Counted from the first letter of the stretch, positions 1 through 19,378 are shown. The stretch: DNA of 23,803 nucleotides from a virus (IMGVR_UViG_2563366943_000008:1-23803), one strand, 5' to 3'. Numbers and translations: made by a program. The notes: generated from the sequence alone by a model not told the origin.

Positions 1-1254
1 ATGCTGGAACAAATGGGCATTGCCGCGAAGCAAGCCTCTTATAAATTAGCGCAACTCTCCAGCCGCGAAAAAAATCGTGTGCTGGAAAAAATCGCCGATG
101 AACTGGAAGCACAAAGCGAAATCATCCTCAACGCTAACGCCCAGGATGTTGCTGACGCGCGTGCCAATGGCCTTAGCGAAGCGATGCTTGACCGTCTGGC
201 ACTGACGCCCGCACGGCTGAAAGGCATTGCCGACGATGTGCGCCAGGTGTGCAATCTCGCCGATCCGGTGGGGCGGGTAATCGATGGCGGCGTACTGGAC
301 AGTGGCCTGCGTCTGGAGCGTCGTCGCGTACCGCTGGGGGTTATTGGCGTGATTTATGAAGCGCGCCCGAACGTGACGGTTGATGTCGCTTCGCTGTGCC
401 TGAAAACAGGTAACGCAGTGATCCTGCGCGGCGGCAAAGAAACCTGTCGCACTAACGCTGCAACGGTAGCGGTGATTCAGGACGCCCTGAAATCCTGCGA
501 TTTACCGGCAGGCGCAGTACAGGCGATTGATAATCCTGACCGCGCGCTGGTCAGTGAAATGCTGCGTATGGATAAATACATCGACATGCTGATCCCGCGC
601 GGCGGGGCTGGTTTGCATAAACTGTGCCGCGAACAGTCGACAATCCCGGTGATCACTGGTGGTATAGGCGTATGCCATATTTACGTTGATGAAAGCGCAG
701 AGATCGCTGAAGCATTAAAAGTGATCGTCAACGCGAAAACTCAGCGACCGAGCACATGTAATACGGTAGAAACCTTGCTGGTAAATAAAAACATCGCCGA
801 TAGCTTCCTGTCCGCATTAAGCAAGCAAATGGCGGAAAGCGGCGTGACGTTACACGCAGATGCTGCTGCGCTGGCGCAGTTGCAGACAGGCCCCGCGAAG
901 GTGGTGGCGGTTAAAGCCGAAGAGTATGACGATGAGTTTCTGTCATTAGATTTGAACGTCAAAATCGTCAGCGATCTTGACGATGCCATCGCCCATATTC
1001 GTGAACACGGCACGCAACACTCCGATGCGATCCTGACCCGCGATATGCGCAACGCCCAGCGTTTTGTTAACGAAGTGGATTCGTCCGCTGTTTACGTTAA
1101 CGCCTCTACGCGTTTTACCGACGGCGGCCAGTTTGGTCTGGGAGCGGAAGTGGCGGTAAGCACACAAAAACTCCACGCGCGTGGCCCGATGGGCCTGGAA
1201 GCACTGACCACTTACAAGTGGATCGGCATCGGTGATTACACCATTCGTGCGTAA
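1..1254 (+). CDS. proA: gamma-glutamyl phosphate reductase (glutamate-5-semialdehyde dehydrogenase), complete 417 aa
   Basis: Full-length ORF from ATG at 1 to TAA at 1252-1254. Translation matches enterobacterial ProA from memory along its whole length, with a few substitutions relative to the K-12 sequence as I recall it. High-GC core-genome codon usage. Confidence 0.95.
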
Positions 1255-1368
1255 ATAAAACCGGGTGATGCAAAAGTAGCCATTTGATTCACAAGGCCAT
1301 TGACGCATCGCCCGGTTAGTTTTAACCTTGTCCACCGTGATTCACGTTCGTGAACATGTCCTTTCAGG

Positions 1369-1444
1369 GCCGATATAGCTCAGTTGGTAGAGCAGCGCAT
1401 TCGTAATGCGAAGGTCGTAGGTTCGACTCCTATTATCGGCACCA
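1369..1444 (+). tRNA. thrW: tRNA-Thr (anticodon CGU), 76 nt with encoded CCA
   Basis: Sequence GCCGATATAGCTCAGTTGGTAGAGCAGCGCATTCGTAATGCGAAGGTCGTAGGTTCGACTCCTATTATCGGCACCA folds as a cloverleaf: 7-bp acceptor stem GCCGATA/TATCGGC, D-arm AGCTCAGTTGGTAGAGC, anticodon loop with CGT, T-arm GGTTCGACTCC. Position immediately downstream of proA matches the known thrW locus. Confidence 0.93.
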
Positions 1445-1461
1445 TTCAAACATCTCCCCAA

Positions 1462-1608
1462 GTCTACTAAAGTCTTTCAAAACCCCTTATAATCCGCGTA
1501 TTAAAGCCCCGTTCGTCTTTTGACGTCTACTAAAGTCCCTCAAAATCTACGGTCAGATGGGGGTACTTATGGGGGTATTTGCTGTTCGGTTTAGTGGAGG
1601 TACCCCCA
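1462..1608. promoter_or_regulatory. integrase-proximal repeat cluster (candidate arm-type / operator sites)
   Basis: Two 23-bp direct repeats GTCTACTAAAGTC(T/C)(T/C)TCAAAA at 1462-1484 and 1525-1547 (3 mismatches). TGGGGGTA(C/T) occurs at 1558-1566 and 1570-1578, with an inverted copy GGTACCCCCA at 1599-1608 that overlaps the GGAGG Shine-Dalgarno (1596-1600) of the integrase gene. Confidence 0.45.
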
Positions 1609-1609
1609 A

Positions 1610-2824
1610 GTGAAACTCAATGCCCGTCAAATAGACACAGCCAAGCCAAAAGAGAAGGCTTACAAGCTGGCCGATGGTGGCGGTTTGTATCTCTTGGTAA
1701 AACCTAATGGAGGTAAATACTGGCGACTTAAATATCGTGTAGCTGGTAAAGAGAAGCTATTGGCACTAGGTGTTTATCCTGAGGTTACTCTAGCCGATGC
1801 TCGGGCAAAACGTGAAGATGCGAAAAGAGGTATCGCTGGTGGTATCGATCCGATGGAAGCGAAACGAGAGGAAAAGATTGCCCGGGAAACGCAGTTAAAC
1901 AACACCTTCAAAGATATTGCCCTTGAGTGGCACAGCAGCAAATTAAAAAAATGGTCTGCTGGTTATGCTTCAGACATCCTCGAAGCCTTCAACAAAGATG
2001 TGTTCCCTTACATTGGCAAAAAAACCATCGCCGAAATCAAACCACTTGAACTTCTGAATGTGCTGCGTCGCATCGAGGGGCGCGGTGCTACAGAAAAAGC
2101 CAAAAAAGTGAGGCAACGGTGCGGGGAAGTTTTCCGCTATGCAATAGTCACTGGTCGCGCAGAGTATAACCCTGCACCAGACCTTACTAGCGCGATGCAA
2201 GGCCATGAATCTAATCATTACCCTTTCCTTACAGCCAAAGAATTACCTGATTTTTTCAAGGCATTGTCCAGTTACTCAGGAAGCGCATTGGTTGTTATGG
2301 CGGCTCGTCTACTGATTATCACCGGCTTGCGGACTGGCGAACTACGTGGCGCATTATGGGATGAAATTGATTTCAACAAGGCTATCTGGGAGATACCCGC
2401 TTCACGTATGAAAATGCGGCGGCCTCATATTGTGCCATTGTCTGAGCAGGCTCTTTCGCTTATTGGGAAGATTAGAGAAATAACAGGCAATTACCCTCTT
2501 ATGTTTCCCGGGCGCAATGATCCAAGGAAAACAATGAGCGAGGCCAGCATAAACCAAGTGTTTAAGCGCATTGGCTACGCTGGACGTGTAACTGGTCATG
2601 GGTTCCGGCACACTATGAGTACGATTTTGCATGAGCAGGGCTATAACACTGCGTGGATAGAAACGCAGCTCGCTCACGTTGATAAGAACTCAATTCGTGG
2701 CACATACAACCATGCGCAATATCTGGATGGAAGGCGGGAGATGCTTCAATGGTATGCCGACTATATGGATTCTCTCGAGCATGGCGGAAATGTGGTGCAT
2801 ATGGTGTTTGAAAAACACGCATGA
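1610..2824 (+). CDS. int: tyrosine integrase, P4/IntA-type (site-specific recombinase), 404 aa
   Basis: GTG start at 1610 with GGAGG 10 nt upstream. N-terminal region typical of P4-family integrases (KLADGGGLYLLVKPNGGKYWRLKYR), C-terminal catalytic domain with HGFRHT and HxxR/Y context. Position directly 3' of a tRNA gene is the classic island arrangement. Confidence 0.9.
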   Translation: MKLNARQIDTAKPKEKAYKLADGGGLYLLVKPNGGKYWRLKYRVAGKEKLLALGVYPEVTLADARAKREDAKRGIAGGIDPMEAKREEKIARETQLNNTFKDIALEWHSSKLKKWSAGYASDILEAFNKDVFPYIGKKTIAEIKPLELLNVLRRIEGRGATEKAKKVRQRCGEVFRYAIVTGRAEYNPAPDLTSAMQGHESNHYPFLTAKELPDFFKALSSYSGSALVVMAARLLIITGLRTGELRGALWDEIDFNKAIWEIPASRMKMRRPHIVPLSEQALSLIGKIREITGNYPLMFPGRNDPRKTMSEASINQVFKRIGYAGRVTGHGFRHTMSTILHEQGYNTAWIETQLAHVDKNSIRGTYNHAQYLDGRREMLQWYADYMDSLEHGGNVVHMVFEKHA

Positions 2825-2919
2825 AACAACTGGACAAGTATACAGAGGTTTACTAAAGTATAAGGGAGTAGATTGATAAAAACTCACAGAGGATTGCTAT
2901 TTAACAGTTAGCCATGGAG

Positions 2920-3220
2920 AAGGGCAATCGCTCTTTTAACAACGAAGATGGAATCTTCTACGCAGCTGAAAAGCTGGATGCTCTTTAACAGCCTTTGGTG
3001 CTTTTCTGATGCAGGAAAGAATAGGGATACATGCACCTTTACAATGCATGTAATGATTCATCCATGAGGCTGCGGAGCGCTGACAAAGCGCAATTGCTCT
3101 TTAACATTGATGTGGGCGGGATGGTTCGTCCCGCAGTGACCGATAGATTTCTATCGGGAAACATACAATGATTCAAATATGAATCTACGGCGCTGACAAA
3201 GCGCAATTGCTCTCTTGCCT
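2920..3220. repeat. intergenic repeat/palindrome cluster
   Basis: Perfect 24-bp direct repeat GCGCTGACAAAGCGCAATTGCTCT at 3077-3100 and 3190-3213. Related CTCTTTAACA motifs at about 2929-2948 and 2980-2993. Perfect palindrome CGATAGATTTCTATCG at 3141-3156. Small hairpin GCGGGA-N7-TCCCGC at about 3115-3135. Confidence 0.6.
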
Positions 3221-3542
3221 GCCCACCATGCCCTGAAAAAGGGCGTTCTTTAAAACTACTGGATGTCACGCCTAATAGCGTGATCCTGCCGAAATGCAGG
3301 GTAGCTCTACCCTTGTGGAGCAAACAAACCAAAACAATCTGACTATCTTTTATAAAAGACCGCAATATGTTTTTCATATTGTGGTCTTTGGCGTATTCGA
3401 CATTTGACGCAAATAAAACTCTCGCCATTCGTTGCAGGAGGGGGTTATTGCGTCATTAGTACAGGATATTAATAAATGGCTAATTACAATTCATTAATTC
3501 GTCTCTCTGAAGTTCAAAGGCGAACTGGGTAATGACTCCAAC

Positions 3543-4046
3543 TTATTGATAGTGTTTTATGTTCAGATAATGCCCGATGACTTTGTCATGCAGCTCCACC
3601 GATTTTGAGAACGACAGCGACTTCCGTCCCAGCCGTGCCAGGTGCTGCCTCAGATTCAGGTTATGCCGCTCAATTCGCTGCGTATATCGCTTGCTGATTA
3701 CGTGCAGCTTTCCCTTCAGGCGGGATTCATACAGCGGCCAGCCATCCGTCATCCATATCACCACGTCAAAGGGTGACAGCAGGCTCATAAGACGCCCCAG
3801 CGTCGCCATAGTGCGTTCACCGAATACGTGCGCAACAACCGTCTTCCGGAGCCTGTCATACGCGTAAAACAGCCAGCGCTGGCGCGATTTAGCCCCGACA
3901 TAGCCCCACTGTTCGTCCATTTCCGCGCAGACGATGACGTCACTGCCCGGCTGTATGCGCGAGGTTACCGACTGCGGCCTGAGTTTTTTAAGTGACGTAA
4001 AATCGTGTTGAGGCCAACGCCCATAATGCGGGCTGTTGCCCGGCAT
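3543..4046 (-). CDS. insB: IS1 InsB reading frame (expressed as the InsAB' transposase by -1 frameshift)
   Basis: 167-aa ORF overlapping the 3' end of insA in the -1 frame; sequence matches IS1 InsB. Confidence 0.85.
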
Positions 4047-4240
4047 CCAACGCCATTCATGGCCATATCAATGATTTTCTGGTGCGTACCGGGTTGAGAA
4101 GCGGTGTAAGTGAACTGCAGTTGCCATGTTTTACGGCAGTGAGAGCAGAGATAGCGCTGATGTCCGGCGGTGCTTTTGCCGTTACGCACCACCCCGTCAG
4201 TAGCTGAACAGGAGGGACAGCTGATAGAAACAGAAGCCAC
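3965..4240 (-). CDS. insA: IS1 InsA (transposition repressor / N-terminal part of transposase)
   Basis: 91-aa [43 protein letters not shown], a zinc-finger plus HTH protein matching IS1 InsA. Confidence 0.9.
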
Positions 4241-4304
4241 TGGAGCACCTCAAAAACACCATCATACACTAAATCAGTAAGTTGGCAGCATCACCGGGTG
4301 ATTA

Positions 4305-6410
4305 ATGGCTAAAGCATGGAAAGATGTTATCGCCTCTCCACAGTATCAGGCGTTAGCACCAGAACAAAAAGCGCAGGCTCAGGAGCAATACTTCAATGAA
4401 GTCGTGGCCCCGCAAGCCGGAGAAAGTGTAGCGCAGGCTAAGCAGGCTTTTTATGCTGCCTATCCACTACCATCAACGAATGAAATAGACCGATCCCAAT
4501 CAGCAACTCAAAATATTCAACATACATCATCTGATAATTCTCTTGCGTCAGGGTATGCAAAGTTAGCTACTCAGCAAAGAGAGGGGCTTGAGCGTTCAGC
4601 AGAACAGGGAGCCAGTCTTGGGGCTGCGATGCGCGATGCTATAACAGGCGAAAGCCGAATGACTCCAGAGATGGAGAGACTGCAAAATGTCGACCTTGCC
4701 CCAGAGTTAACCTCACTCAGCATGGGTGCTCTAAAAGCTCGATGGTCTCAACTTTTCGGCTCTGACGCATCTCAGGAAAAGATTCTTCAGAGCATGGGAG
4801 CGAAATTAAGGCAGGATGAGAAGGGTAACACTATCGTTTCCCTGCCATCCGGTGATTATGCTCTGAACAAGCCGGGTTTATCGCCGCAAGACGTGGCATC
4901 GTTTCTGGCTAATGCGCTGGCGTTTACACCAGCGGGCAGGGCTGGAACGGTGCTTGGTGCCATAGGAAAATCAGCAGCTACAGATTTAGCACTACAGGGA
5001 GCCACCAGCCTTGCTGGTGGAGAAGATATTGATCCGTTACAAACGGTAATTTCTGCTGGCATTGGTGGTATTGGTAAGGGGCTGGAAAATACAGCGAGTG
5101 CGGTTTCGAGGGCTGTTCGTGGTGATATGTCGCCTGAAGCAAAGGCTGCTGTCAACTTTGCATCGGAAAGAAATCTGCCGTTAATGACCAGTGACATGCT
5201 GAAAGATAAAACCTTTATGCAGAGTCAGGCTCAGACATTAGGCGAAAGAGTTCCTTTTTTTGGAACCGGTAAGAATCGGCTGAATCAACAACAAGCACGA
5301 GAAAATTTAGTCAGAACATTTAGCGATGGTCTGGGTGGCATTTCTGATAAACAGCTTTATGAATCTGCGACTAAAGGGCAACAAAAATTCATTGAGGCAG
5401 CAGGAAAGCGATATAACCGCATAATTGACGCTATGGGGGATACCCCTGTCGATCTCTCAAACACGGTAAAAGCTATCGACAATCAGATTGCCGTGTTAAG
5501 CCGCCCGGGCAAATCTCAGGATAGAGCCGCGGTAAAAGTCTTGCAGCAATTTAAAGACGATATCACCAGCGGACCAAATGACCTGCGTCTGGCGAGGGAA
5601 AACAGAACCGATCTTCGAAAGCGATTTATGGCGTCATCTGACACTGTTGATAAAGATACGCTCCAGAAAGCCAGCGATATTATCTACAAGGCATATACGG
5701 CGGATATGAAAAAAGCCGTAGCCAAAAATCTTGGAGCAGACGAAGCCATTAATATGGCAAGGGTTGATCGGTCATGGTCTAAATTCAATGACATGATGGG
5801 AAGAACGCGCGTTCAAAAGGCAATAGCCAGCGGTAAGGCCACGCCTGAGGATGTAACAAAACTCGTTTTTAGCCAAAGCCCATCAGAACGTTCTCAGCTT
5901 TACAGGCTTCTGGATGACAATGGTAGGCAAAACGCACGAGCAGCCATAGTTCAGAATGCTGTAGATAAGGCGACTGATCCGTCTGGAAATATCAGTGTTG
6001 AGAAGTTTATTAATGCGTTACACCGGAACAGGAAGCAATCAGCAACTTTCTTTAAAGGCGTACATGGAAAGGAACTGGACGGCGTTATTAAATACCTCAA
6101 CGATACAAGACACGCGGCAAAAGCGAACGTTCAAAACTTAAATGGTCAGCAGCTTTATGGATTGTTAGTTGGTGGTGGCATCATAAACGCAGCAGTATTA
6201 GCGGGGATGCTAAAAACGGCTGCGTTTGTTGTTCCTGCTGCTGGTGCCGTAGGCGGAGCAGCGAAGGCATACGAAAGCCCTGTTATACGAAATGCCTTGT
6301 TACGTCTGGCAAATACGCCAAAAGGTAGCACAGCATATGACAGAGCGATCAGTACGGTCACACAATCGCTCACCAGAGTCGCACAGGCATCACAAAAAGA
6401 AGCTCAATAA
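4305..6410 (+). CDS. large Ala/Gln/Lys-rich helical protein with C-terminal Gly/Ala-rich hydrophobic segment (function unknown; tape-measure-like or pore-forming-toxin-like)
   Basis: 701-aa ORF with consistent coding character. First ATG lies 9 bp after the IS1 end, preceded by an in-frame TGA and no Shine-Dalgarno, so the native N-terminus and promoter may be missing. About 37-residue hydrophobic stretch LYGLLVGGGIINAAVLAGMLKTAAFVVPAAGAVGGAA near the C-terminus. Confidence 0.5.
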   Translation: MAKAWKDVIASPQYQALAPEQKAQAQEQYFNEVVAPQAGESVAQAKQAFYAAYPLPSTNEIDRSQSATQNIQHTSSDNSLASGYAKLATQQREGLERSAEQGASLGAAMRDAITGESRMTPEMERLQNVDLAPELTSLSMGALKARWSQLFGSDASQEKILQSMGAKLRQDEKGNTIVSLPSGDYALNKPGLSPQDVASFLANALAFTPAGRAGTVLGAIGKSAATDLALQGATSLAGGEDIDPLQTVISAGIGGIGKGLENTASAVSRAVRGDMSPEAKAAVNFASERNLPLMTSDMLKDKTFMQSQAQTLGERVPFFGTGKNRLNQQQARENLVRTFSDGLGGISDKQLYESATKGQQKFIEAAGKRYNRIIDAMGDTPVDLSNTVKAIDNQIAVLSRPGKSQDRAAVKVLQQFKDDITSGPNDLRLARENRTDLRKRFMASSDTVDKDTLQKASDIIYKAYTADMKKAVAKNLGADEAINMARVDRSWSKFNDMMGRTRVQKAIASGKATPEDVTKLVFSQSPSERSQLYRLLDDNGRQNARAAIVQNAVDKATDPSGNISVEKFINALHRNRKQSATFFKGVHGKELDGVIKYLNDTRHAAKANVQNLNGQQLYGLLVGGGIINAAVLAGMLKTAAFVVPAAGAVGGAAKAYESPVIRNALLRLANTPKGSTAYDRAISTVTQSLTRVAQASQKEAQ

Positions 6411-6429
6411 CTGGTTAGCCATGGATGGC

Positions 6430-7044
6430 TTAGATATCTCTGCTGTCTCCATTAGGAAATAAAAGATAATATGGATTTGCCTTTCTTGCTCTCCTTGCTT
6501 CACCCGGATACCTGTTAGTCAGTAGCTTGCATAATGAGCAGAGAACAACACTCAAGAAAATTCCGAATGAGAAGATCAATATCTCACCAAAAATCAATGG
6601 CGATATTAAATTTTCAGGATTTAATGATAAGTCAATGTTAAAAACATATTGAGCAATACCAGTAAGTATCAATAATATAATCCCTATGGAATACATTGCT
6701 GTTTCCCAAACATCAGACAGTCTATTTTTGAATTGTTCGCTGGAGTAGTAGTTTGTTATAAAGTCAGAAAAATCACTCTCATATGCATCATCTTTAGGTG
6801 ATGTTAGAAATCCTCTGTCTCTCCATACCTTCTCCCAATTAGTCGATTCTTTTTTTAAGGAAAAATAAATATGTATTCCCAAAAGGATAGCCAAAATTGG
6901 TGTTAGCTCTAAAAAATAGAATGTTATGGAATAAATAATACTGCCATGTTCAAACTCATCTGGGACTATCATGTATGCACAAAAATAAATTGAAAAGTAC
7001 ACCATGCAGATAGTTAGCAATTCTTTAGTATCTTTTCTGCTCAC
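6430..7044 (-). CDS. integral membrane protein, 4 predicted TM helices (candidate immunity / abortive-infection membrane protein)
   Basis: 204-aa ORF with GTG start at 7044 and AAGGGGG Shine-Dalgarno upstream. Four long hydrophobic helices with a charged central loop. Very AT-rich compared with the adjacent 701-aa gene. Convergent with that gene, with a 19-bp gap containing a palindrome. Confidence 0.6.
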   Translation of the reverse strand: MSRKDTKELLTICMVYFSIYFCAYMIVPDEFEHGSIIYSITFYFLELTPILAILLGIHIYFSLKKESTNWEKVWRDRGFLTSPKDDAYESDFSDFITNYYSSEQFKNRLSDVWETAMYSIGIILLILTGIAQYVFNIDLSLNPENLISPLIFGEILIFSFGIFLSVVLCSLCKLLTNRYPGEARRARKANPYYLLFPNGDSRDI

Positions 7045-7498
7045 ACCAACCCCCTTTAGCGTTGTTTAGAATGGCAATCATCATATATCCAAGACATGGC
7101 ATTTGGTACATAGCTTGGGTCGGGATTTCAAGTCCGCTCCCAGTTGATGGGGCCGTTACAGTACGCGCATATCCGCTTTATGTGAAACAGGAAGATTTTT
7201 CTGATATCACTGCCACAGCAAAACACCAATTTCGTGACCAGTACGCGCGCGAGGGGTATCAGTTGCAAAATTTTTTGCAACTGCGTCCGACCAGTACGCA
7301 CACGATGGCGGGGGATACCATAAAACTGTTCTCTACATGAGACAGAGTGGTGGTGATGTGTTGATTATCGGCGTATATGCGCACAGGACGCGCTATGACG
7401 ATGTTTTATGCGGGTACACCAATCACATGTATCTGGTGTGATAAATCGCGTTACATGACCTCTCATGTTGTGCTGGTGGTTATCACGACTTTCTGAAT

Positions 7499-7542
7499 CT
7501 GGCCTTTGCCTGATATTTTGCGACAAGTACGCGCGCGTAGCA
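7499..7542. repeat. dispersed repeat with alternating CG core (copy A)
   Basis: CTGGCCTTTGCCTGATATTTTGCGACAAGTACGCGCGCGTAGCA. Partial relatives at 7231-7253 (TTTCGTGACCAGTACGCGCGCGAG) and 7283-7303 (CCGACCAGTACGCACACGA). Confidence 0.6.
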
Positions 7543-7565
7543 TCGACAGCATACACATTGGATAT

Positions 7566-7787
7566 TCATTTTGTGACCAATGCGATAAGTAGCGGGATAA
7601 GAATTGATAAAATCAACAGGCCGATGATCCACTTTTGATTTTCACTGGCCTTATCTCTATTTTCATCAATCTTATCAATAATTCGACGCTCCAATCCGTG
7701 CATATCACCGCGAATGGCAATCATCTCATTGCGAACATCAGGGAAGTGGTTGGCTTGATGTTCAATGTGTGGCGTTCTGCCTTTCAT
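7566..7787 (-). CDS. small protein with N-terminal coiled-coil and single C-terminal TM helix (XhlA/holin-like architecture)
   Basis: 73-aa ORF; C-terminal WIIGLLILSILIPLLIALV is a clear TM segment. Architecture resembles small prophage membrane proteins. Not verified by homology. Confidence 0.4.
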   Translation of the reverse strand: MKGRTPHIEHQANHFPDVRNEMIAIRGDMHGLERRIIDKIDENRDKASENQKWIIGLLILSILIPLLIALVTK

Positions 7788-7866
7788 ATCTGATCCTCAC
7801 CTATCGTCACTACCTGCTGGTGTATAAAGGTATTGGCCCAAGCAACTTTCCAATGGGCACTCATGT

Positions 7867-8322
7867 TTATACGCTGACCTTACAATCAATCACTGCTTTT
7901 AGCTTTTCAGCATTGCTTCCCTGACGCTTCCACGCGCTGTAAATATCTTTATCCCACGCTTTACCAGCTTTTGTTTGATAGCCTGCTTCATTGATCCGTT
8001 CAGCTATCACACGCCCATTATCAAATCCCTGTTGGATGGTATCGGCAATGATCTTTATAACTGCCGTTTCGTTATATGGTTTTGGTGGGATGTTCGGCTT
8101 TCCGGCAATAAGCGACGCAGCGGCTTTTTCCATGCGCTCCACCAGCCCAAGCATTCGTGAATCAATAGACTTTTCCGGCTGCCCCAGCTTCATGCGAATC
8201 GCATCAACAAGCCAGGAGGTTTTATCTCCTCCAGAAGCGAGAACAGACCGATTAAACTCATCCTGCAATTCAGATGGGATGCGGAACGCGACCAGATTAG
8301 ATTTGCTCATTGCAAAGACCAT
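7867..8322 (-). CDS. putative ribbon-helix-helix DNA-binding regulator with C-terminal extension
   Basis: 151-aa ORF. N-terminus NLVAFRIPSELQDEFNRSVLASGGDKTSWLVDAIRMKL fits a beta-strand / helix / helix RHH pattern. A palindromic operator-like sequence lies immediately upstream. An alternative start at 8310 (MSKSN) is possible. Confidence 0.5.
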   Translation of the reverse strand: MVFAMSKSNLVAFRIPSELQDEFNRSVLASGGDKTSWLVDAIRMKLGQPEKSIDSRMLGLVERMEKAAASLIAGKPNIPPKPYNETAVIKIIADTIQQGFDNGRVIAERINEAGYQTKAGKAWDKDIYSAWKRQGSNAEKLKAVIDCKVSV

Positions 8323-8339
8323 ATCAGTGAGTAATATCC

Positions 8340-8545
8340 ATACAGTATACCACTGTATAACACTGTTATACGCTCAAATATCAGCCAGAAAATAACGGAC
8401 CAATCACAAATCTATCGCTGTGTTGTTGGTTCAGAGCTGGGCTGTGTTGGTTCAAAATGAGTTGATGTTGGTTCAATATTTCAGAAAAAACACAATAAAA
8501 ACAACAATCTTTACAAATTGAACCAACTGAACCAACTGAACCAAC
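8340..8545. promoter_or_regulatory. divergent control region with phased iterons
   Basis: Palindrome GTATAAC-ACT-GTTATAC at 8355-8371. Three direct copies of TGTTGGTTCA at 8424, 8445 and 8467 (spacing 21-22 bp). AT-rich spacer. Three tandem inverted copies TGAACCAAC at 8519, 8528 and 8537. TATAAT at 8563-8568 just before the 8582 start. Confidence 0.55.
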
Positions 8546-8581
8546 ACCTTTTTGCTTATCTATATAATCTGAGAGGCAGAA

Positions 8582-8863
8582 ATGATAAGGGACAGGAAAG
8601 CTGAAGAGCTGGAGTCAAAAGGGCTATACCGGAGAGCTGCCGCACGATGGATGGAAGTCATGCTGTTATGCACCGAGGACGATGATCGGGAATGGATAAA
8701 GCGCCGCCGTGAAACGTGTCTGGAGAACGTGAAGCGCCCGCCCGTGAAGGTTGAGGAATTTGGCGACCTGCATAAAGCTGTTACCGAAACGCAACACCGC
8801 ATGGGGATAGCGCAACCGAACGGTAACGCCTTCCGGTTAAATGGCGGCAAGAGGCAAAGGTAG
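8582..8863 (+). CDS. small transcription-activator-like protein (PerC-family-like, tentative)
   Basis: 93-aa ORF MIRDRKAEELESKGLYRRAAARWMEVM. The N-terminal motif resembles PerC/Pch-type prophage regulators as recalled from memory. Directly downstream of the iteron region. Confidence 0.45.
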   Translation: MIRDRKAEELESKGLYRRAAARWMEVMLLCTEDDDREWIKRRRETCLENVKRPPVKVEEFGDLHKAVTETQHRMGIAQPNGNAFRLNGGKRQR

Positions 8864-8888
8864 ACCACCAGAGGGAAATCATCCTCTG

Positions 8889-8934
8889 GCTGGCGGTTTC
8901 TGGTATTTCGGGACAAGTACGCGCGCGCGTAGCA
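8889..8934. repeat. dispersed repeat with alternating CG core (copy B)
   Basis: CTGGCGGTTTCTGGTATTTCGGGACAAGTACGCGCGCGCGTAGCA. Same orientation as copy A, core GACAAGTACGCGCGCG(CG)TAGCA identical apart from one extra CG unit. Confidence 0.6.
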
Positions 8935-9160
8935 CCCAATCGGTGAGGAAATAGCGGCGACCTGAATGGTCAAAATCACAACGCAGCTATCCCCGTAAGC
9001 AGCGCTTAACGGAATAGCAGTAACCTGAATCCAGTGGGGAGGGGGTAGTCAAATCTCTACAGCCCTGACTATCCGGGACTGCCCGCCCCATCGTTTTTTT
9101 ATACCCGCGAAAAATGAAATTTAATCCGGGCGTGTTTCATTCTTCCAGAGGGTATGACGT

Positions 9161-9346
9161 ATGACACCACGCGAAATAGCCTTATTGACCATCGCCAAAC
9201 TTGAGCACGGAGGCCACCAGCTTACACAGGCAGATCAACGGGAGATAGAACGATCAGTTAATGCCGATATAGCCCGGCGCGACAGGTTCCGCGAAATGAT
9301 GCGAGCACCTGCCTACCAGTGGAAGAAGCCAGCGCCGCGCAGGTAG
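9161..9346 (+). CDS. hypothetical small protein (61 aa)
   Basis: ORF with a GAGGG Shine-Dalgarno-like sequence upstream; no recognisable motif. Confidence 0.3.
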   Translation: MTPREIALLTIAKLEHGGHQLTQADQREIERSVNADIARRDRFREMMRAPAYQWKKPAPRR

Positions 9347-9466
9347 ATATGGGATTATTCCACATGTAACTTATGCGTATTAAGCAAATTTCCTTTATTC
9401 ACCTTTACAGAATTGTGAGTACGTCAGTATCGTTATCCTTCCGATTCGCATTTATTCAGGATTTGC

Positions 9467-10009
9467 ATGTACCAGCTAAAGATAACCATCCGAGACAGCA
9501 AACCACCTATATGGCGGCGTGTGCTGGTTCCAGAGCAAATCCCCTTTAGTAAACTTCATGCCGTGATCCAGTTAGCTTTTGGCTGGAATGACGAACACCT
9601 GTATATGTTCGAGAAAGGGCGTAAAGGTGATCCAGGTAGCGAGTATCGCGTATGGGGTGAGGATGAAAGCATGGGTAACGCGGCAATCACGCCACTATGG
9701 GCGGCGCTCCAGAATGAGGGTGACAAGCTGGTTTACACGTATGACTTTGGCGACTGGTGGGATTGCGTCATTGTGCTGGAGAAGCAAACACACGATACGA
9801 GTAATCAGCCCATTAGCTGCCTGCGTGGGAAAGGCACCACCCCGGCGGAAAACTCAGGCGGCTTGCATGGTTACAATGAATTGCTATTACAGGCCAGAGA
9901 GTCTGATAATCCTGAGCAGGCCGAGATCCACAATTTCCTGATGCTGGATATTGAACGCCGGGTTTACGACCTGAGCCGCATCAACGACAGATTGCAGGCT
10001 ATTAACTGA
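9467..10009 (+). CDS. pRiA4b ORF-3-like family protein (tentative)
   Basis: 180-aa ORF containing YTYDFGDWWDCVI, which resembles the YxYDFGDxWxHxI signature I recall for the plasmid pRiA4b ORF-3-like domain. Confidence 0.45.
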   Translation: MYQLKITIRDSKPPIWRRVLVPEQIPFSKLHAVIQLAFGWNDEHLYMFEKGRKGDPGSEYRVWGEDESMGNAAITPLWAALQNEGDKLVYTYDFGDWWDCVIVLEKQTHDTSNQPISCLRGKGTTPAENSGGLHGYNELLLQARESDNPEQAEIHNFLMLDIERRVYDLSRINDRLQAIN

Positions 10010-10361
10010 CCCGCATGTATTCACCTGATATTGCGTTGTCAGCGCCGCCAGTATCGCGCATAACAGCGCACTGACCGGGTAAACCGTAGCGCACGACCGT
10101 TGCGTTAGTATCACCGCCGCGCCGTATCTGGCGCGATTCATACACTGTCACCCGCTCAAGCAGTCCACCAGCAACCATGCTTTCCAGTGTGCGCCGGGTT
10201 GATTCGAGCTGGTGACGCTTATCGAACGACACCATGCCATGAAGCAGGTAGGCCACACCCGACACATCGAACGGCGGCGCACCAATCTCACCAGTCACCC
10301 ATTCGAGGTTATCCGGTTCAAAGTAGCTAAGTATCTCTTTTTTGCGGCTGGTCATTCTCAT
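10002..10361 (-). CDS. hypothetical protein (119 aa)
   Basis: ORF convergent with and overlapping the 3' end of the 9467-10009 gene by 8 bp; AAGGA-like Shine-Dalgarno upstream of the ATG at 10361. Function unknown. Confidence 0.35.
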   Translation of the reverse strand: MRMTSRKKEILSYFEPDNLEWVTGEIGAPPFDVSGVAYLLHGMVSFDKRHQLESTRRTLESMVAGGLLERVTVYESRQIRRGGDTNATVVRYGLPGQCAVMRDTGGADNAISGEYMRVS

Positions 10362-10480
10362 GGCTGGCTGATTCCTTATTGTGGGATAGCACTATCATAC
10401 AATAAGTGGGTTAAAGGGAGAGCGTTACCGCCTGATATGCTGTATGAATAACAACCAAATTTCAGGGGCGGAAAAAGATA

Positions 10481-10501
10481 TGGGGGTACTTTTGGGGGTA
10501 T
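10481..10501. repeat. second copy of the TGGGGGTAC-N3-TGGGGGTAT motif pair
   Basis: TGGGGGTACTTTTGGGGGTAT at 10481-10501 versus TGGGGGTACTTATGGGGGTAT at 1558-1578: same orientation, one mismatch. Confidence 0.7.
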
Positions 10502-10562
10502 CTATAAAAAATGAACAATAAAAAAGGCAACAAAAACAAAGCTTATCGCCTATGTGTATTGT

Positions 10563-10582
10563 TCCTATTATCGCACAATCAA
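10563..10582. other. degenerate direct repeat of the tRNA-Thr 3' end (candidate attR core of module 1)
   Basis: TCCTATTATCG-CAC-AATCAA aligns with tRNA 3' end TCCTATTATCGGCACCATTCAA (1428-1449): 11/11 identical, then gapped similarity. Lies about 60 bp beyond the second TGGGGGTA pair. Confidence 0.45.
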
Positions 10583-11182
10583 GAAAATCAATAACTTAGC
10601 TTAACTTCTCTAAGAAATTGTATCTTCTGTTATCACTTACAAACGCCTATACGTTGTTATGGGCTTTGGTAGTGTAACACGTATGGGCGAGTAGTTCCCA
10701 GGCTCAACCTCGTAACAAGTTCCTTTGAAGCTGGAAGACGTGCCACCGTCTCTAAACCTTCTACCAAAACTCTTAGCAAGATGTTCCACACCTGGCGCGG
10801 TGTCCAATGATGCTACACGTCGTGAGACGTTGCAGAGGATAAACAGGCTAAATGATGGGAAGAGTTTTAAGTGCAATAGTGGATCAAAGCCCACCTCTTC
10901 AAAACCTAACTTGATCGGGAAAGAATCAAGCTCTAGCACGGTTTCGTCCACCGGAGTACAACGGGTGCCTGATAAGAGAAGAACTGCTAAGACTTCATAG
11001 CTTTTGTGAAAAAGCCCTTTTAGTGGATACGCCTACGGCGCTTATTTTTTGGGGTAGCCCATCAAAGGCGCTTTATGGCTCCTATTGTCTTGAAAATGTA
11101 TCTTTACTTGTATTGTGTTTTATGCGTAGTCTCCCTGTGTAGTATGTAACTTGTTAATTTTCATATGAATACAGAGGCACAC

Positions 11183-11341
11183 GATGAAAAACATTGCAGC
11201 TATCAAACGTAATAACCGCAAGATTCACGCTCGTAAGTTCCTGTCTACGCCAGAAGGAAAAGCCTGGCTAGAGCGTAAACAGAGAGAGAACGAAGAAAGA
11301 AAACTCCTTAATGAGTTGAAATGGCTTAGAGAGGATTTCTG
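11183..11341 (+). CDS. hypothetical small basic protein (52 aa)
   Basis: ATG at 11183 with GAGG 6-9 nt upstream; translation MKNIAAIKRNNRKIHARKFLSTPEGKAWLERKQRENEERKLLNELKWLREDF. Below the ORF-track size cutoff, so found by eye. Coding status uncertain. Confidence 0.25.
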
Positions 11342-12153
11342 AAAATCTCCAGAACGCAACAGGACGCATTCTAACGCTATTTTCATTGCTTGGTATAGGG
11401 ATGTATAGGTGATGTGTGTTTAATGCGTCTGTGCGCTTGTTTTGTGCCTTATTTTGCATTTTCATAATGCAGAAGAGAACACGGAAAACCTTAAAATTAA
11501 TTATTGGGGTATTTAAGGGTATTTTCAGGTGATTTAAGGGTATTAAACTTGATTTAATTGATTAAAATATAAACAGATAGTTGTGTATCTTATTGATTTA
11601 TAAGGTTATTTTTAAATAAAGGTAAATAAAAAATAAATAGCCATAAATAGCTATAAATACATCTAAATACCTATATCCCTTCCCTTATGGCTAGATTGCG
11701 AGAGGTGCTTAACGCGATTTTCAGCGCCCCCCGATCTGGAAAATCCAGAATCCCCAAATATCAGCAAGGAATTTTCTTGCGTAATCAACATCGTTTTTAC
11801 CTATTAAATCATTACACAGAAAGCCTTTCTGTAATGTCTCTCACTAAACTTTCACTAAACACGAGAATGATCGGTTTTATGTCGGATCAGATGCTAGAAA
11901 CAGCACCACGTCTCACAAGGACTGTAAGCGATGAAACCAGTGTTTATGCGGGTGCAGGTCAAAATATAGGCCAAAATCAATTTAACATAATAAACGTAAT
12001 ATGCACTAAGGAACACATAGAACGCCTTGAGTTGATGTATCAGGGGAAAAGTGATGGATTTTTTACGTAGGAGCACGAGAGGGCTTCTGTTGACTTTTGT
12101 ATGCTATGAAACATAATTAAAGGTTTTTTTGTTTTTATTGTGTGATGTAGTGG

Positions 12154-13127
12154 ATTACACAGGGGAATAGATTAAATGGTGTTCTGTTTATACAGGTTTA
12201 TTTGTTAGATCAACAATTTGGCATTTCTAAACAGATGTTTGAACGTTGCCAAATGTCTTGACAACACAAGAAAAGGGCTTGCTATGCCACGCATTACACG
12301 AAATAAGGCTGTAAAAACAAAATAAATTTTAAAATTTGCACAAACGAGAAAACTCGTTAAGAAACAAGCAGAACAATTTTTAGCCAACAATTTCTGATGG
12401 TGCTCTGTAGGCCGCACTACACAAGGATTTGCGAAAGTGATGTAAAAGTGAAGAAAGTAAGAATTGCACTTTTAAGCTACTTTTCATTGAATTTTTAGTA
12501 TGGAATTACACAGGAATAAGTTAGGGATATTCTATGATTTACACAGGGAATATAGGGGATTATGGCACACACATAGAAAGGCATTACACAGAGTGAGTGC
12601 TATGTGATGATTGGTAGTAACGGTAGGTCATAGTGAGCTAGGGGGTAGGTCACTGTGAACTACAATAAGACTATTAATAAAACTATATTAGATTATTAAT
12701 TAGATCATAATAATAATATTCTTTATATCTATATATATGATCTTTTGCCTTCCGGCGTTAGCTTCACTCTCTGGCAAGCAGCCTTACTCCGCTACCTTTC
12801 GGGCTTCGTGGCTGGCCCGTTCCGCTCACACCGAAAGCAAAGCGTTACTTTCTTCGTGTAACTTCGTTGGCGGTAACGCCCACGAAGAAATCTATTGCGC
12901 TGTGCGCAGTAAGAGTAATCACCTAACCAATCATACTGATTGCTTATGTGTTAACTCTCTCTAACTCTTAATTACCCTCCTACATTTAATAACTCTGTTA
13001 TTCTCTGTAGTTGTGTAATTACTCGAAGAGAGAGCGGCTAAAGCTCAATTACACTCTGCTTTCCTCGTGTAATTTCACTAAGCCTCAATACAATTTCACT
13101 TCCTACATTCTGTAGTCGTGTAATTGT
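12154..13127. repeat. iteron field flanking an AT-rich tract and GC-rich core (origin-like region)
   Basis: Direct copies of (A/T)TTACACAGG(G/A)AATA at 12154, 12505, 12538 and 12583, plus variants at 12293 and 12417. Inverted copies CGTGTAA(T/C) at 12855, 13012, 13066 and 13117. 17-bp repeat TCTGTAGT(T/C)GTGTAATT at 13004 and 13110. GGTAGGTCA repeats at about 12625 and 12649. Extremely AT-rich tract at about 12660-12745. Confidence 0.5.
12745..12915. ncRNA. candidate structured RNA or single-strand initiation element (strand undetermined)
   Basis: GC-rich patch inside AT-rich DNA. Hairpin CTTCGTTGGCG-GTAA-CGCCCACGAAG (12862-12887; 10 of 11 positions pair, GNRA-type tetraloop). Hairpin CGGGC-N10-GCCCG (12800-12819). 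Long-range complementarity CTTACTCCGC (12783-12792) with GCGCAGTAAG (12904-12913). The overlapping 75-aa ORF has a non-protein-like sequence. Confidence 0.25.
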
Positions 13128-13761
13128 TTTCGGTGGAAAAGCCAGAGGCGACACCGAAAGAGAATTCTGATCTTATTAATCTTATCTATCTTAGTTAATC
13201 TTCTTACTTATCTTACTTACTTTATCTACTTTATTATTAATAATAGCTTTATAAGCTCTCTGTGTAGCTCTCTGACGCAAGAAACAGCATTCAGGAAGGG
13301 AATCACCTTAGAAAAGGTGTTCTTTGCGTCATAATGTGTTTTATGAAGGATTCAGAGGTGTTTCATAACAGGAATGTATAGAGAATACTTTAGGTAATTA
13401 AAAATAAGGGGTCTAAATGCTTCTCTAACAGCATTAAGCAGGGTAGGGAATGGAAACGCATTGCCTACATATAATAAACTCACTACAGGGCTTTACAGGG
13501 CGTTTTATAAAGCGACTCTCTGTTTTATATCTACAATCACCTTTTCATATACCTAACAAATACAAAATAAGCCCCTTAAATAAGCCTCTGGCGAGCTAAA
13601 CAGACATTACATAAGAGAATGTATTGCTTTTATCAAAACTTCGTTAGAACGCGTTTTAGAGCGTTTTAGCGGATAATGAAGAATAGCACTACACAGAAGA
13701 GCACGAATTGCTAAGACAAATTATAACATGCTGAAAAAGATCGATTTTTTCGAAAAGGGTA

Positions 13762-13790
13762 TTGACAAATGTTTCTTTATATGTAATAAT
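13762..13790 (+). promoter_or_regulatory. sigma70-like promoter upstream of the rightward small-gene array
   Basis: TTGACA at 13762-13767, 16-17 bp spacer, TAATAA(T) at 13784-13790. The -35 is embedded in GGGTATTGACA, sharing the GGGTATT motif seen elsewhere in the element. Confidence 0.4.
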
Positions 13791-13903
13791 AGGTATTAGA
13801 GGGACAGAAAAACATTCTTCTCTAAATAATCAAAATCAATGCACTTTGAAGCCGTCAGGCTTGCAAGGTGTTTTATTTCTTTTAACTGAATAAGGAGTTT
13901 TTT

Positions 13904-14335: not shown

Positions 14336-15028
14336 ATGATTAACCAACTAACTTTTACAAAACACTATGACACGTTTGATAATATATCAAAGATTTATTC
14401 TGATAAATTCCCTCAAGGAAAAGATTTAGATCTATTACATATTGTGCTTTATTTTCGATTCCTTAGTTATCAGGAAAACAACCTTAATTGTTATGAAAGT
14501 CACGAAACATTAGCTAAGATTTTTAAGTCTTCACCATCAACAATTAAACGTAAGATAAACGATCTTAAAGAGATGGGATTATTAGAAACATCCCCACATC
14601 CTGATCCGTATATTTCATCTTTGATTTACAATGCTCTCCCTCTCACAGATGCACATATTACTCCCCCAGGAGAATCATCACTCTCTGATCTTTCTGAGGC
14701 AGAAGAAGCACAGGAACAACCTAAAGGCCATAAACAGCCTTCTTTTGATGTTCTTGATGATGATTGGGATACGCCTTTACCCTGGGAGACGGAAGAAACA
14801 CCTGTTTCATCAAGTGAAAAGGTAGCTAATGATAATGAGGAGGATGTGTTAGAGAATTTTGCCTCTCTTATCATCCAGGAGAAACACAAAAGAACAGGAG
14901 GGGCATCATTTATAGAATTTGCAAATTCACTAGCTTGTAGATACGGGCTAAAACGACCAAATGGTATTGAGGCATATTTTTCTAAGCATTACCCAAATGT
15001 ATACGAAGACTTTGATATTCCCTTTTAA
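14336..15028 (+). CDS. putative winged-helix DNA-binding protein with acidic C-terminal tail (replication-initiator / replisome-organiser-like)
   Basis: ATG at 14336 with AAGGAG 9 nt upstream (ORF track starts at 14312). N-terminal segment ETLAKIFKSSPSTIKRKINDLKEMGLLE is a typical HTH. C-terminal third is strongly acidic (DDDWDTPLPWETEETP...EEDVLENF). Confidence 0.45.
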   Translation: MINQLTFTKHYDTFDNISKIYSDKFPQGKDLDLLHIVLYFRFLSYQENNLNCYESHETLAKIFKSSPSTIKRKINDLKEMGLLETSPHPDPYISSLIYNALPLTDAHITPPGESSLSDLSEAEEAQEQPKGHKQPSFDVLDDDWDTPLPWETEETPVSSSEKVANDNEEDVLENFASLIIQEKHKRTGGASFIEFANSLACRYGLKRPNGIEAYFSKHYPNVYEDFDIPF

Positions 15029-17140: not shown

Positions 17141-18169
17141 ATGATTCTAGGTAATGATTACGTTGATTTAGCTCCTCTGTTCTCTGCGCATAGCACTAGA
17201 AATTATCTACTTTCTACTCTCGACTTCACTGATCCGGTGGGCGTTAGTTCTCATAAAGTAGCTGTTTCCCAGCTTGTCGAAAGCAACGAATCTCTCTTTA
17301 ACAAAGAGACAAGCCGTTTTAGTTCTGAACACAATGTTACTAAGCGAGAACAAGGTAAAGAATGGCTGATCGAAATCCCTTACTTCCTGCGTGAAGATGT
17401 GATCCGTCCTTCTGATGTTCAAGGCAAGCGTAAGCCTGGCACTGATTTTCAGGAAACACTCACTGATATTTATGCTGACTATGTTGCTAAACACCACGTA
17501 GCGTATCAGCGTACAAAAGAGAGCGTGCTGGCTGCATCTCTGTTTAGCGGTAAAACTTACACGCCTAAAACTGATGATGTTCTTATCGAGTGGAGCAAGC
17601 TGTTTAACGTATCAGCTATGAAAGCCACTGTGAACGCTTCCAGCACTGACACCACGAAGATTTTTAAAGAATTTGATCAGATTGCTACTGACATTATCGA
17701 AAAAGCACAGAGTCAGGCGGCGGCTGTAGAGCGAATTGTTGTTTTCTGTAAGCCGGAAGCCTTCTCTGCAATTCGATTCTCTGCTGGTATGGCAAACGCA
17801 TTCCAGTATGTAAGCCCACTGGAAGAGGGGAACGTTGTGTATCAGCGTCGTGACCTGCTGCCAGGGGTGACAGCGTTCACTATTCCAGGAACTAACATTG
17901 ATGTTGTTAAACTGGTAGATCCGCTACACCTGGCACATATGACCGCAGACGCTGTAGCTGTGCCTAAATTCTCTAAGGGTAGCGGAATTTATACCAACAT
18001 CTACGGGGCTGCTTCCAGCACCTTTGAACTGATTAATGCCGCTCCTGCTGAGGTGTATAGCTATAGCTATGAATCTTCTCGTGGTGATGCTGTTAACGTT
18101 GTTACAGAGAATAGCCAGATGGTGGTAAACCACGGTGTAGGCTTCTCCGTTCAAATCACTGTTAAATAA
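17141..18169 (+). CDS. putative major capsid protein (lambda gpE-like / HK97-fold candidate), 342 aa
   Basis: Length close to lambda gpE (341 aa). Local resemblance IVVFCKPEAFSAIRFS versus lambda IIVFDPKGWALFRS as recalled from memory. No signal peptide or enzymatic motif. Followed by a strong intrinsic terminator, consistent with a highly expressed structural gene. Confidence 0.4.
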   Translation: MILGNDYVDLAPLFSAHSTRNYLLSTLDFTDPVGVSSHKVAVSQLVESNESLFNKETSRFSSEHNVTKREQGKEWLIEIPYFLREDVIRPSDVQGKRKPGTDFQETLTDIYADYVAKHHVAYQRTKESVLAASLFSGKTYTPKTDDVLIEWSKLFNVSAMKATVNASSTDTTKIFKEFDQIATDIIEKAQSQAAAVERIVVFCKPEAFSAIRFSAGMANAFQYVSPLEEGNVVYQRRDLLPGVTAFTIPGTNIDVVKLVDPLHLAHMTADAVAVPKFSKGSGIYTNIYGAASSTFELINAAPAEVYSYSYESSRGDAVNVVTENSQMVVNHGVGFSVQITVK

Positions 18170-18459: not shown

Positions 18460-19378
18460 TAAGGGGATTTTAAATGTTAGAAATTAACACTTCTAAAATT
18501 AAGAACACAGTAACATTTAGTGTAGATAAAGACAGCTTGAAAAAAGCGAAAGACTCTATTACAGGCTTAAAGGAATTTGCAGAGAATATCAAGCCAGCTA
18601 AGTTAAGGTTTGATAATGTCACTAAAGGCTATAAGAAAGCACAAAGTGAAGTAGACAAGATTGCTCAACAGAAAGCTAAAGCCGAAAAACAGAATCAAAG
18701 AGTACAAGCTGCCGCAGCAAGAGCACAGGCAAGGCAACAGCAACAAATAGCAGCACGTAAAGAGAAAGCAGAATTAAAACTCCTCGATGTGTCAAGCTCT
18801 ATCAGTGCAATGCACCGTCTCTCTGTAGCTGAACAATACAAAGCTATTGCACAGGCTAGAGAAATTGCCCTCCAATATGAAAGAGGCGCTATTAGTCTGG
18901 CACGTATGAATAGCCAGATGAAACGCTTACAACAGCAACAACGTAAGATTAATGGCAACAGAAAAGCACAATTAGCCCCCGTTAAGGGAGGATCAGGGAA
19001 TTCCGCCACTATGGGCGCTCTGTTATTTGGAGGCGCTACGGCTGCTGCTGGCGTGATGGCTGTTAGTAAAGCGTCGGAGTTTGTTAGTAGCAGTTTCGCT
19101 AACGCAGAGACCCAAGGGGAGCTAATCCAACGTGCAAGGCTTGGCGGTGTAGACGTTAACCAGATGTATAATATTACAGAATGGGCGTATAGAAACGGCG
19201 TTGACTCTATGATGGGTGATCAAGGGGCTAGGAAATACCTGGATCAGATGAAAGATGTTAGGGAACGTGCCGCAAAATCCTACAGTGAAGCTGAATTGGT
19301 GAAAGACAAGAAAACCGGAAAATCTGAATGGAAAGGCGGTGATAATGCTATTAATGAACTTCTAAACTGGATTTGCCC

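Follow-up and report, generated by a model that had tools for sequence, protein, structure and literature searches.

We identified a tandem array of two mobile elements at the 3' end of the tRNA-Thr gene thrW in a 23,803-nucleotide stretch of DNA (IMGVR_UViG_2563366943_000008:1-23803, hereafter the window), and this array was very probably built by site-specific recombination of two unrelated tyrosine integrases whose cores in the tRNA end overlap. The window is identical to positions 4733911-4757713 of NZ_OZ547117.1 from Escherichia coli isolate AF3 (blood culture, UK) and is oriented from proA and thrW towards yagU. The annotated order is proB, proA, thrW, an integrase gene, the insertion sequence (IS) IS1, a P22 gp16-type protein and accessory genes including PerC, followed by a low-GC block (a capsid gene, a gene split by IS2 and a baseplate-type gene), a second integrase gene on the minus strand, an integrase fragment and yagU. 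The conserved left chromosomal flank is formed by proA (1-1254, plus strand; Pfam Aldedh and RefSeq annotation). We designated the two elements module 1 (1445-10578, 9134 bp) and module 2 (10579 to ~23891, 13.3 kb, or ~12.0 kb without IS2). In the established model of integration into tRNA genes, the phage-side attachment (att) site, attP, holds a copy of the tRNA 3' end, and integration restores the tRNA gene on the left, places a partial copy on the right and reopens the site. In the window, each integration would likewise have restored thrW on the left and left a partial copy on the right, making further integrations possible.

The boundaries of both elements could be read directly from repeats of the tRNA end. 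thrW itself is an intact tRNA-Thr(CGT) gene (1369-1444, plus strand; ARAGORN, and Rfam with 71.8 bits), and its 3' end, TCCTATTATCGGCACCA (17 nt, 1428-1444, plus strand), is the attL core of the array. The original prediction, made from the sequence of the window, had noted a degenerate repeat of this end near 10563. The repeat proved to occupy 10563-10578 on the plus strand (TCCTATTATCG-CACAA), where it serves module 1 as attR and module 2 as attL and marks the module boundary. Relative to the thrW end, this internal core consists of an exact 11-mer (TCCTATTATCG) followed by a 1-nt deletion (one G) and one mismatch. Owing to the 1-nt deletion, the internal copy escaped an ungapped search with the tRNA end (up to three mismatches), and it was recovered by alignment together with an exact 11-mer search. 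A third thrW repeat, TCCTCTTATCGGCACCA, which is a better match, lies 89 nt past the window end (L001 36892-36908, window-equivalent 23892-23908). A single base distinguishes the two outer cores (the one at 1428-1444 and the distal repeat), the internal core being more degenerate, and the att cores of module 2 in the window strain are mutually mismatched.

Each element has a direct repeat of the tRNA 3' end at its far end, with the intact tRNA gene at the other, and carries its own integrase gene beside an att site: int1 starts 166 nt from attL, and int2 starts 146 nt from the distal repeat. int1 (1610-2824, plus strand) is a P4/IntS-type tyrosine integrase with Arm-DNA-bind_3 (PF13356), Phage_int_M and catalytic domains, and int2 (22469-23746, minus strand) is a tyrosine integrase with DUF6538, SAM_5 and catalytic domains. 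The two share 24% identity, in the catalytic domain only, and are unrelated. A second, different integrase had been noted after the first island; it is indeed present, placed at the far end of its element and reading inward from the distal att repeat. The sharp fall in GC content that had been noticed after the first island was also evident, with GC contents of 46.1% for module 1 and 38.8% for module 2 (IS elements removed), compared to 54% in the chromosomal flank.

We further examined the state of thrW in 5426 complete E. coli genomes. A junction query of 361 nt (window 10400-10760) matched 780 records and was split exactly at 10563; most of these records contained the right half alone, under an annotated tRNA-Thr, and a smaller set contained the left half alone. 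One example of the former is STEFF_1, in which module 2 is fused directly to an intact thrW and similarity begins at 10563, the first base of the repeat. In Ec-050 and EC16, module 1 is present alone, and its attR is joined to the native flank, which reads TTAAAATCAAAGAG and continues into yagP' and the pao genes. The predicted empty site (a synthetic thrW joined to the native flank) was found in 948 of the 5426 genomes, such as ATCC 8739, and an int1-type attL in 863. The window-type tandem junction was present in 9 genomes, and a variant junction, taken from O26 RM10386 (hereafter O26), in 9 more. Alignment to genomes with an empty thrW or a single module had been proposed as a check: empty, module-1-only, module-2-only and tandem states were all found, with breakpoints always at the repeats. 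Rather than co-occurring without a junction at about 10.5 kb, the two modules occur singly and separate at 10563. The match at this position is kept as an att repeat in O26, MP1, Ec-050 and EC16, and it coincides with the TCCTATTATC repeats of the island EcCIMP1 at sequenced excision boundaries (PMC11773190). In module-2-only genomes, attL and attR have ~20 nt in common, ACTCCTATTATCGGCACCAT, and the cores of the two integrases therefore overlap.

The internal repeat departs from the 17-nt tRNA end by one deletion and one mismatch, and this degenerate copy might in principle be a chance match, in which case the compositional break would reflect an unrelated insertion or rearrangement. However, the 11-mer is confined to two sites in the window (300 shuffles averaged 0.01 copies), the internal core stands in exact register both with thrW of module-2-only genomes and with the published EcCIMP1 attR, and similarity breaks at this very base in hundreds of genomes. 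This explanation is already refuted, and we assign it next to no probability. A more serious alternative is that both modules entered the lineage together, either through homologous recombination of the proA-yagU region or through co-excision between the two outer att sites. Such joint entry is consistent with the rarity of the tandem junction (9 + 9 genomes), with near-identical copies in a few strains and with the closeness of the two outer cores relative to the internal one. Against it, many genomes have only module 1 or only module 2 at thrW, and 948 have an empty site. Since single-module and empty states exist, the array must have been assembled serially at some point, and joint entry, which we regard as rather unlikely, concerns only where this took place. 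Serial acquisition at one tRNA hot spot, as the original prediction suggested, is thus supported by the independent occurrence of the modules and the 948 empty sites.

Serial assembly by two integrases also has to accommodate several points that weigh against it or limit what can be read from it. It is commonly assumed that the element closest to the intact tRNA gene was the last to integrate, by which module 1 would be the later arrival. Insertion of module 1 into the thrW copy provided by module 2, however, gives the same junction as insertion of module 2 into attR of module 1; both orders predict the observed junction, and the core sequences do not distinguish between them. Strain APEC O1 has the opposite order of module 2 and an island with a P4-type integrase. 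The array may have entered this lineage as a block via homologous recombination of flanking core genes, and the role of arm-type sites proposed below for the octamer TGGGGGTA is based on position and copy number.

A separate candidate boundary was the sequence CTCCTATTGTC (11080-11090), which matches the thrW core at 10 of 11 positions. It was rejected, as such a match is close to chance among local repeat pairs and coincides with no comparative breakpoint. This site lies ~518 nt inside module 2 and continues into GAAAATGTATCTT (site 11080-11092), echoing GAAATTGTATCTT at 10614-10626, probably by chance.

Several events of decay and rearrangement were visible in the array. Past the distal repeat (L001 36909-37100), we found a frameshifted integrase fragment resembling the start of the Sakai element Sp1, including the intD end, and the native yagP'/pao flank is missing in AF3. 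This Sp1/intD-type remnant is a third, vestigial member, so that the array once had at least three members. SCU-172 is 100% identical to the window across the tandem junction, and both SCU-172 and MSB1_4I show 99.8-99.9% identity over window 3523-23803 with the adjoining 1-3522 unmatched. This pattern suggests an IS1-associated rearrangement that separated thrW-int1 from the remaining array.

thrW is among the most used integration sites of E. coli (PMC7545054), and tandem elements with separate integrases, Sp1 and Sp2, have been annotated there in Sakai O157:H7 (PMC8190617; PMC9997748). The window resembles Sakai in having a two-integrase tandem at thrW, and the vestige in the window strain resembles the Sp1 start. 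In contrast to the window modules, Sp1 is a lambda-like remnant and Sp2 a true P4-like satellite (psu, sid, primase), and neither is EcCIMP1-like or related to module 2. A further system is VAT-PAI/PAI-APECO1-thrW (Parreira & Gyles 2003, as cited in PMC6956023 and PMC7545054), a pathogenicity island (PAI) between proA and yagU at thrW with a low GC content of 41%, which has been treated as one unit of 33 open reading frames (ORFs) including vat. The left ~12 kb of the APEC O1 island corresponds to module 2, with the same integrase; in this strain, module 2 adjoins thrW and is followed by a P4-type integrase fragment, vatX and vat. The window differs in that it lacks vat and in that module 2 is separable and bounded by its own att repeats. 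The E. coli form of module 2 thus appears to have been lumped so far into VAT-PAI. As the tandem arrangement at thrW is already known from Sakai and MP1, the window is a further instance, with its first member from a published family. The array as such adds little to a textbook hot spot where the att site of the module 1 family has been verified experimentally; what is useful is that precise boundaries show thrW islands to be stacks of separable elements.

The published family is that of EcCIMP1, a 19,963-bp phage-inducible chromosomal island (PICI) described in E. coli MP1 at tRNA-Thr between proA and yagU and flanked by TCCTATTATC repeats (PMC11773190, ISME J 2025). In MP1, excision of EcCIMP1 was seen by PCR with Sanger-confirmed boundaries, induction and transfer were shown with the helper Kapi1, a temperate phage closely related to P22, and the island adjoins a second, unclassified island with MarR and vat (PMC11773190). 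Module 1 shares with EcCIMP1 the tRNA-Thr site, the TCCTATTATC repeats, the integrase type and an attR with a single G. The proA-thrW-int1 stretch is 97.7% identical in DNA sequence to MP1; on the other side, window 8445-10576 matches the right end of EcCIMP1 at 99.0% identity, and the match ends at the core. In addition, the PerC, pRiA4b-ORF3 and 61-aa proteins share accessions with MP1, and five TGGGGGTA sites occur in the same places. The differences are that the window copy has 9.1 kb compared to 19,963 bp, that its neighbor is module 2 and not the vat island, that its attR overlap has an extra C-to-A change, and that the regulator, antirepressor, Ash, primase and three ejection genes have been deleted by IS1.

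The extent of this deletion was clear from the intact copy in O26. There, module 1 (~18.5 kb) has genes for the integrase, a regulator of the AlpA/excisionase type, an antirepressor, a member of the Ash family and a TOPRIM-DUF927 primase, together with the P22-type 14-7-20-16 cassette, PerC and variable accessory genes, of which AbiD is carried by the O26 variant only. The 14-7-20-16 block of intact EcCIMP1-type islands (O26: L003 14459-19117) encodes head morphogenesis and three ejection proteins, and the P22-type block genes have been named DNA transfer genes (PMC11773190). In the window, the AlpA/excisionase-like gene is cut by IS1 after its first ~50 nt (3476-3527, plus strand); window 3245-3528 corresponds to O26 6022-6305, and the O26 gene at 6253-6456 belongs to the PHROG family 'excisionase and transcriptional regulator'. 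IS1 (3528-4295, minus strand) lacks a target-site duplication and unites O26 positions 6305 and 17003, corresponding to a 10.7-kb deletion relative to the intact element. The genes lost are those for the AlpA/excisionase regulator, antirepressor, Ash, primase and three of the four P22-type ejection proteins. The sole survivor of the 14-7-20-16 cassette is a P22 gp16-type DNA-transfer (ejection) protein (4305-6410, plus strand). It is followed by accessory genes (6430-10361) which include unnamed ORFs, a PerC-family regulator (8582-8863) and a pRiA4b ORF-3 family protein (9467-10009).

An AlpA-family regulator and a DNA primase are core modules of PICIs, and both are deleted in the window copy, which is therefore a remnant of the EcCIMP1-type PICI family rather than a functional member. 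A P4-integrase island of roughly 9.1 kb had been predicted here. The size (9134 bp) and the integrase type agree with this view, but the island class does not. P4-like satellites are characterized by psu, sid, delta, epsilon and the alpha primase in combination with a P4-type integrase, of which only the integrase type fits; Pfam and PHROGs detected no psu, sid or delta, whether in the window or in intact module 1 of O26. Module 1 is an IS1-truncated EcCIMP1-type PICI and no P4-like satellite.

We also analyzed the sequences next to the module 1 cores. The motif pair near the integrase that had been reported to recur at the far end, TGGGGGTACTTATGGGGGTAT at 1558-1578, is repeated at 10481-10501 with one mismatch and was absent from 100 shuffles. 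It contains the octamer TGGGGGTA, which occurs five times in the window (1558+, 1570+, 1601-, 10481+ and 10493+), always within 180 bp of the two cores. Three copies lie between the core and the int1 start codon (1558-1608), where they are candidate P' arm sites overlapping the int1 leader; the third of these is inverted (1601-1608) and stands right before the start codon. The other two (10481-10500, plus strand), 62-82 bp left of the internal core, are candidate P arm sites of module 1. The left arrangement is the same in O26 and MP1, and the right pair is kept in O26, Ec-050, EC16 and MP1. The five octamers are most likely arm-type integrase sites, two P arm and three P' arm, which would be bound by the N-terminal domain of int1, because the two sets would meet in the circular attP and int1 has a PF13356 arm-DNA-binding domain. 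Their layout resembles the P1, P2 and P'1-3 sites of lambda. Alternatively, the octamers might be sites for an AlpA/excisionase-type regulator or int1 promoter elements, considering that the 52 nt upstream of the int1 start codon contain three copies and that sites for directionality factors overlap the integrase promoter in other prophages, such as KplE1. We find this doubtful: two copies are located at the far end of the element by attR, remote from the int promoter, as expected for sites that meet in attP; the arm-DNA-binding domain of int1 is left out of account by it; and no sigma-70-like promoter was found at 1400-1700.

The att cores of module 1 also bear on the position of strand exchange. 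attR has a single G (TCCTATTATCG-CACCA type) in the window, O26, Ec-050, EC16 and MP1, and attL (thrW) has GG in all of them. If exchange occurred inside TCCTATTATC, attR would gain the chromosomal GG, and one round of excision and reintegration would erase the single G. Since the single-G attR persists, strand exchange of module 1 probably takes place to the right of the single-G position, in CACCAT(T), whose length suits the usual 6-8-bp overlap of tyrosine recombinases. The TCCTATTATC stretch has been hypothesized to be the core att sequence (PMC11773190), and the invariant single-G attR is an argument for exchange in CACCAT(T) instead of this published core. In the window, the attR overlap reads CACAAT, with an additional C-to-A change. 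Because the excisionase gene is gone and the overlap is mismatched, the window copy of module 1 is presumably no longer able to excise.

Additional sequence features were observed in module 1. A 242-bp segment (window 3003-3244) is missing from module 1 of both O26 and MP1. It is part of a minus-strand ORF of 129 aa annotated as hypothetical and includes two identical 24-nt stretches in direct orientation (3077-3100 and 3190-3213). Another example is the GAC(A/C)AGTACGCGCGCG motif, four copies of which are present in the accessory region (7224-7541 and 8900-8931), near the PerC gene.

Module 2 is an apparently undescribed element and a candidate phage satellite. Its left part (10579-13900) is ORF-poor and AT-rich (37% GC), with one annotated 52-aa coding sequence and no ORF longer than 127 aa in 3.3 kb, and is 98% conserved between strains. 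Phased ATAAATA-type repeats are present at 11633-11659 and an iteron remnant of ~1.5 units at 12622-12663, and the O26 copy has arrays of 18-23-bp iterons (L003 25133-25474). This left part probably holds cis-acting sites, including the iteron remnant. The genes that follow encode a replication-initiator-like helix-turn-helix protein (14336-15028, plus strand; Pfam HTH_36 and PHROG replication-initiation families), a major capsid protein (Phage_cap_E; 17141-18169, plus strand), which aligned end to end with phi92 gp124 at 21% identity, a tape-measure-like protein (18474-21639, plus strand; 609 aa when intact), a Dit-like tail protein homologous to phi92 gp135 (21674-22387, plus strand) and int2, along with two small conserved proteins and several unnamed small proteins. 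The tape-measure-like gene is split by IS2 (19368-20698, minus strand), a simple insertion with a 5-bp TAAAC duplication; intact tape-measure-like and Dit-like genes are found at L002 13451-16028. Within the head module, the capsid protein alone was recognized, the other small ORFs having no family match in Pfam or PHROGs, and no terminase, portal or lysis genes were recognized in module 2 with the same databases. Capsid-forming PICIs are defined by capsid, protease, portal, head-tail connectors and small terminase, and by its recognizable genes module 2 appears to fall outside this class.

Relatives of module 2 occur in Klebsiella and Enterobacter with the same core gene order, 30-68% amino acid identity and the integrase at the same end. 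The Klebsiella relative adjoins a tRNA-Gly gene, and a scan of genome contigs with the capsid protein detected at least one close relative.

A connection to virulent phages was found in the ORF-poor region. Its sole sharp hit against phage genomes was window 11690-11735 (plus strand), which matched phi92-like myoviruses (Justusliebigvirus, Stephanstirmvirinae) at 44 of 46 positions; longer and weaker matches were observed in Klebsiella and Citrobacter phages of similar size. In phi92, the match is at 318-363 and the annotated left direct terminal repeat covers 1-343, and the record of Klebsiella phage phi1_175008 begins and ends with the same 343 nt, so the 46-nt segment spans the inner boundary of the 343-bp direct terminal repeat. 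Aligning module 2 with phi92 and the Klebsiella phage revealed two invariant blocks, one of 29 nt, TTGCGAGAGGTGCTTAACGCGATTTTCAG (11696-11724), and a short one, CCAAATATCA (~11754-11763). The repeat boundary falls inside the 29-nt block, as TTGCGAGAGGTGCT|TAACGCGATTTTCAG, within 1 nt of the same position in both phages. Besides the capsid protein, a distant homolog of phi92 gp124, two further proteins of module 2 point to the same phages. phi92 gp135 and its homologs in related phages, some of which are annotated as 'tail tube initiator or completion protein', share 58-61% identity with the Dit-like protein, and the tape-measure-like protein resembles phi92 gp134 (53% identity over the first 66 residues and 31% in the middle); gp134 and gp135 are adjacent genes in phi92. 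The phage-like block was present in all 11 checkable E. coli copies of module 2 and in 425 of the 5426 genomes, always in the chromosome. The Klebsiella and Enterobacter relatives have neither this block nor the gp135-like gene, and when the left region of a Klebsiella relative was compared with the phage collection, only a tRNA-Gly gene was matched, which provided no second instance of helper mimicry. Because these relatives lack both features, the direction of transfer is from phage to element, and the family has the appearance of a streamlined mobile element, not of a prophage in decay.

Other signs of a phage-borne state were sought. A search of module 2 for a copy of the left edge of the phage terminal repeat yielded only a weak collinear similarity at 12206-12255. 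No terminal overlap indicative of circular forms was found in 24 metagenome contigs that contained module 2 or phage sequence (29-nt block), and the module-2-sized contigs among metagenomic sequences (L050, L055 and L066) break at or near the thrW flanks. In IMG/VR, the search for virion-derived forms returned prophage calls from isolate genomes.

We tentatively propose that module 2 represents an undescribed ~12-kb satellite family of Enterobacteriaceae, the E. coli lineage of which would parasitize virulent phi92-like myoviruses (Stephanstirmvirinae), although we put this somewhat below an even chance. Features of module 2 behind this proposal are the integrase, Rep, iterons, a partial structural set and the copy of the phage terminal-repeat boundary. 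As a satellite, module 2 would excise and replicate upon phage infection, the helper terminase would cut and package its concatemers at the mimicked terminal-repeat boundary, and its capsid and tail-gene homologs might alter helper virions. The competing explanation, by which module 2 would be what decay has left of a temperate phage and not a functional element or satellite, draws on its having only three recognizable structural genes and no terminase, portal or lysis genes, on the 3.3-kb ORF-poor stretch and on the IS2 in the tape-measure-like gene of the AF3 copy. We judge it to be unlikely. Random decay would not yield a minimal gene order and an integrase end that are kept in Klebsiella and Enterobacter at 30-68% identity; moreover, module 2 encodes a replication initiator of its own and contains iterons, it showed no fragments of other phage genes, and the phage-derived 46-nt block is kept in 11 of 11 E. 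coli copies.

The literature that we searched, with incomplete coverage, contained no description of a satellite of phi92 or Justusliebigvirus, and to our knowledge no satellite of a large virulent coliphage has been described. The closest functional analog is the PLE of Vibrio cholerae, a satellite of phage ICP1. Like module 2, it is a 12-18-kb island with its own integrase and initiator and a lytic myovirus helper (for module 2, a proposed one), but no sequence relationship between the two was seen. PLE uses a large serine recombinase and steals the ICP1 coat protein, whereas the integrase of module 2 is of the tyrosine type and the element encodes a capsid protein of its own as well as homologs of tail genes of the putative helper. 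If the satellite proposal is correct, an element present in ~8-14% of complete E. coli genomes would copy the terminal-repeat cut site of phi92-type phages, which would bear on the choice of phages for therapy and on genome-end recognition by these phages. Module 2 is the item worth following up, and if confirmed it would matter more than the array itself.

An Rfam search of the whole window matched thrW alone, and no known RNA family explained the ORF-poor 3.3 kb; the small and accessory ORFs of the window gave no informative match by Pfam (E up to 1), PHROGs or PADLOC. For the conserved 120-aa protein encoded upstream of the capsid gene of module 2, AlphaFold2 gave a mean pLDDT (predicted local distance difference test) of 53.9. 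Finally, the metagenome contig OBZI01000555.1 was found to carry a divergent module 2, with 72-73% identity in the capsid/tape-measure region, in which the exact 29-nt block is kept.

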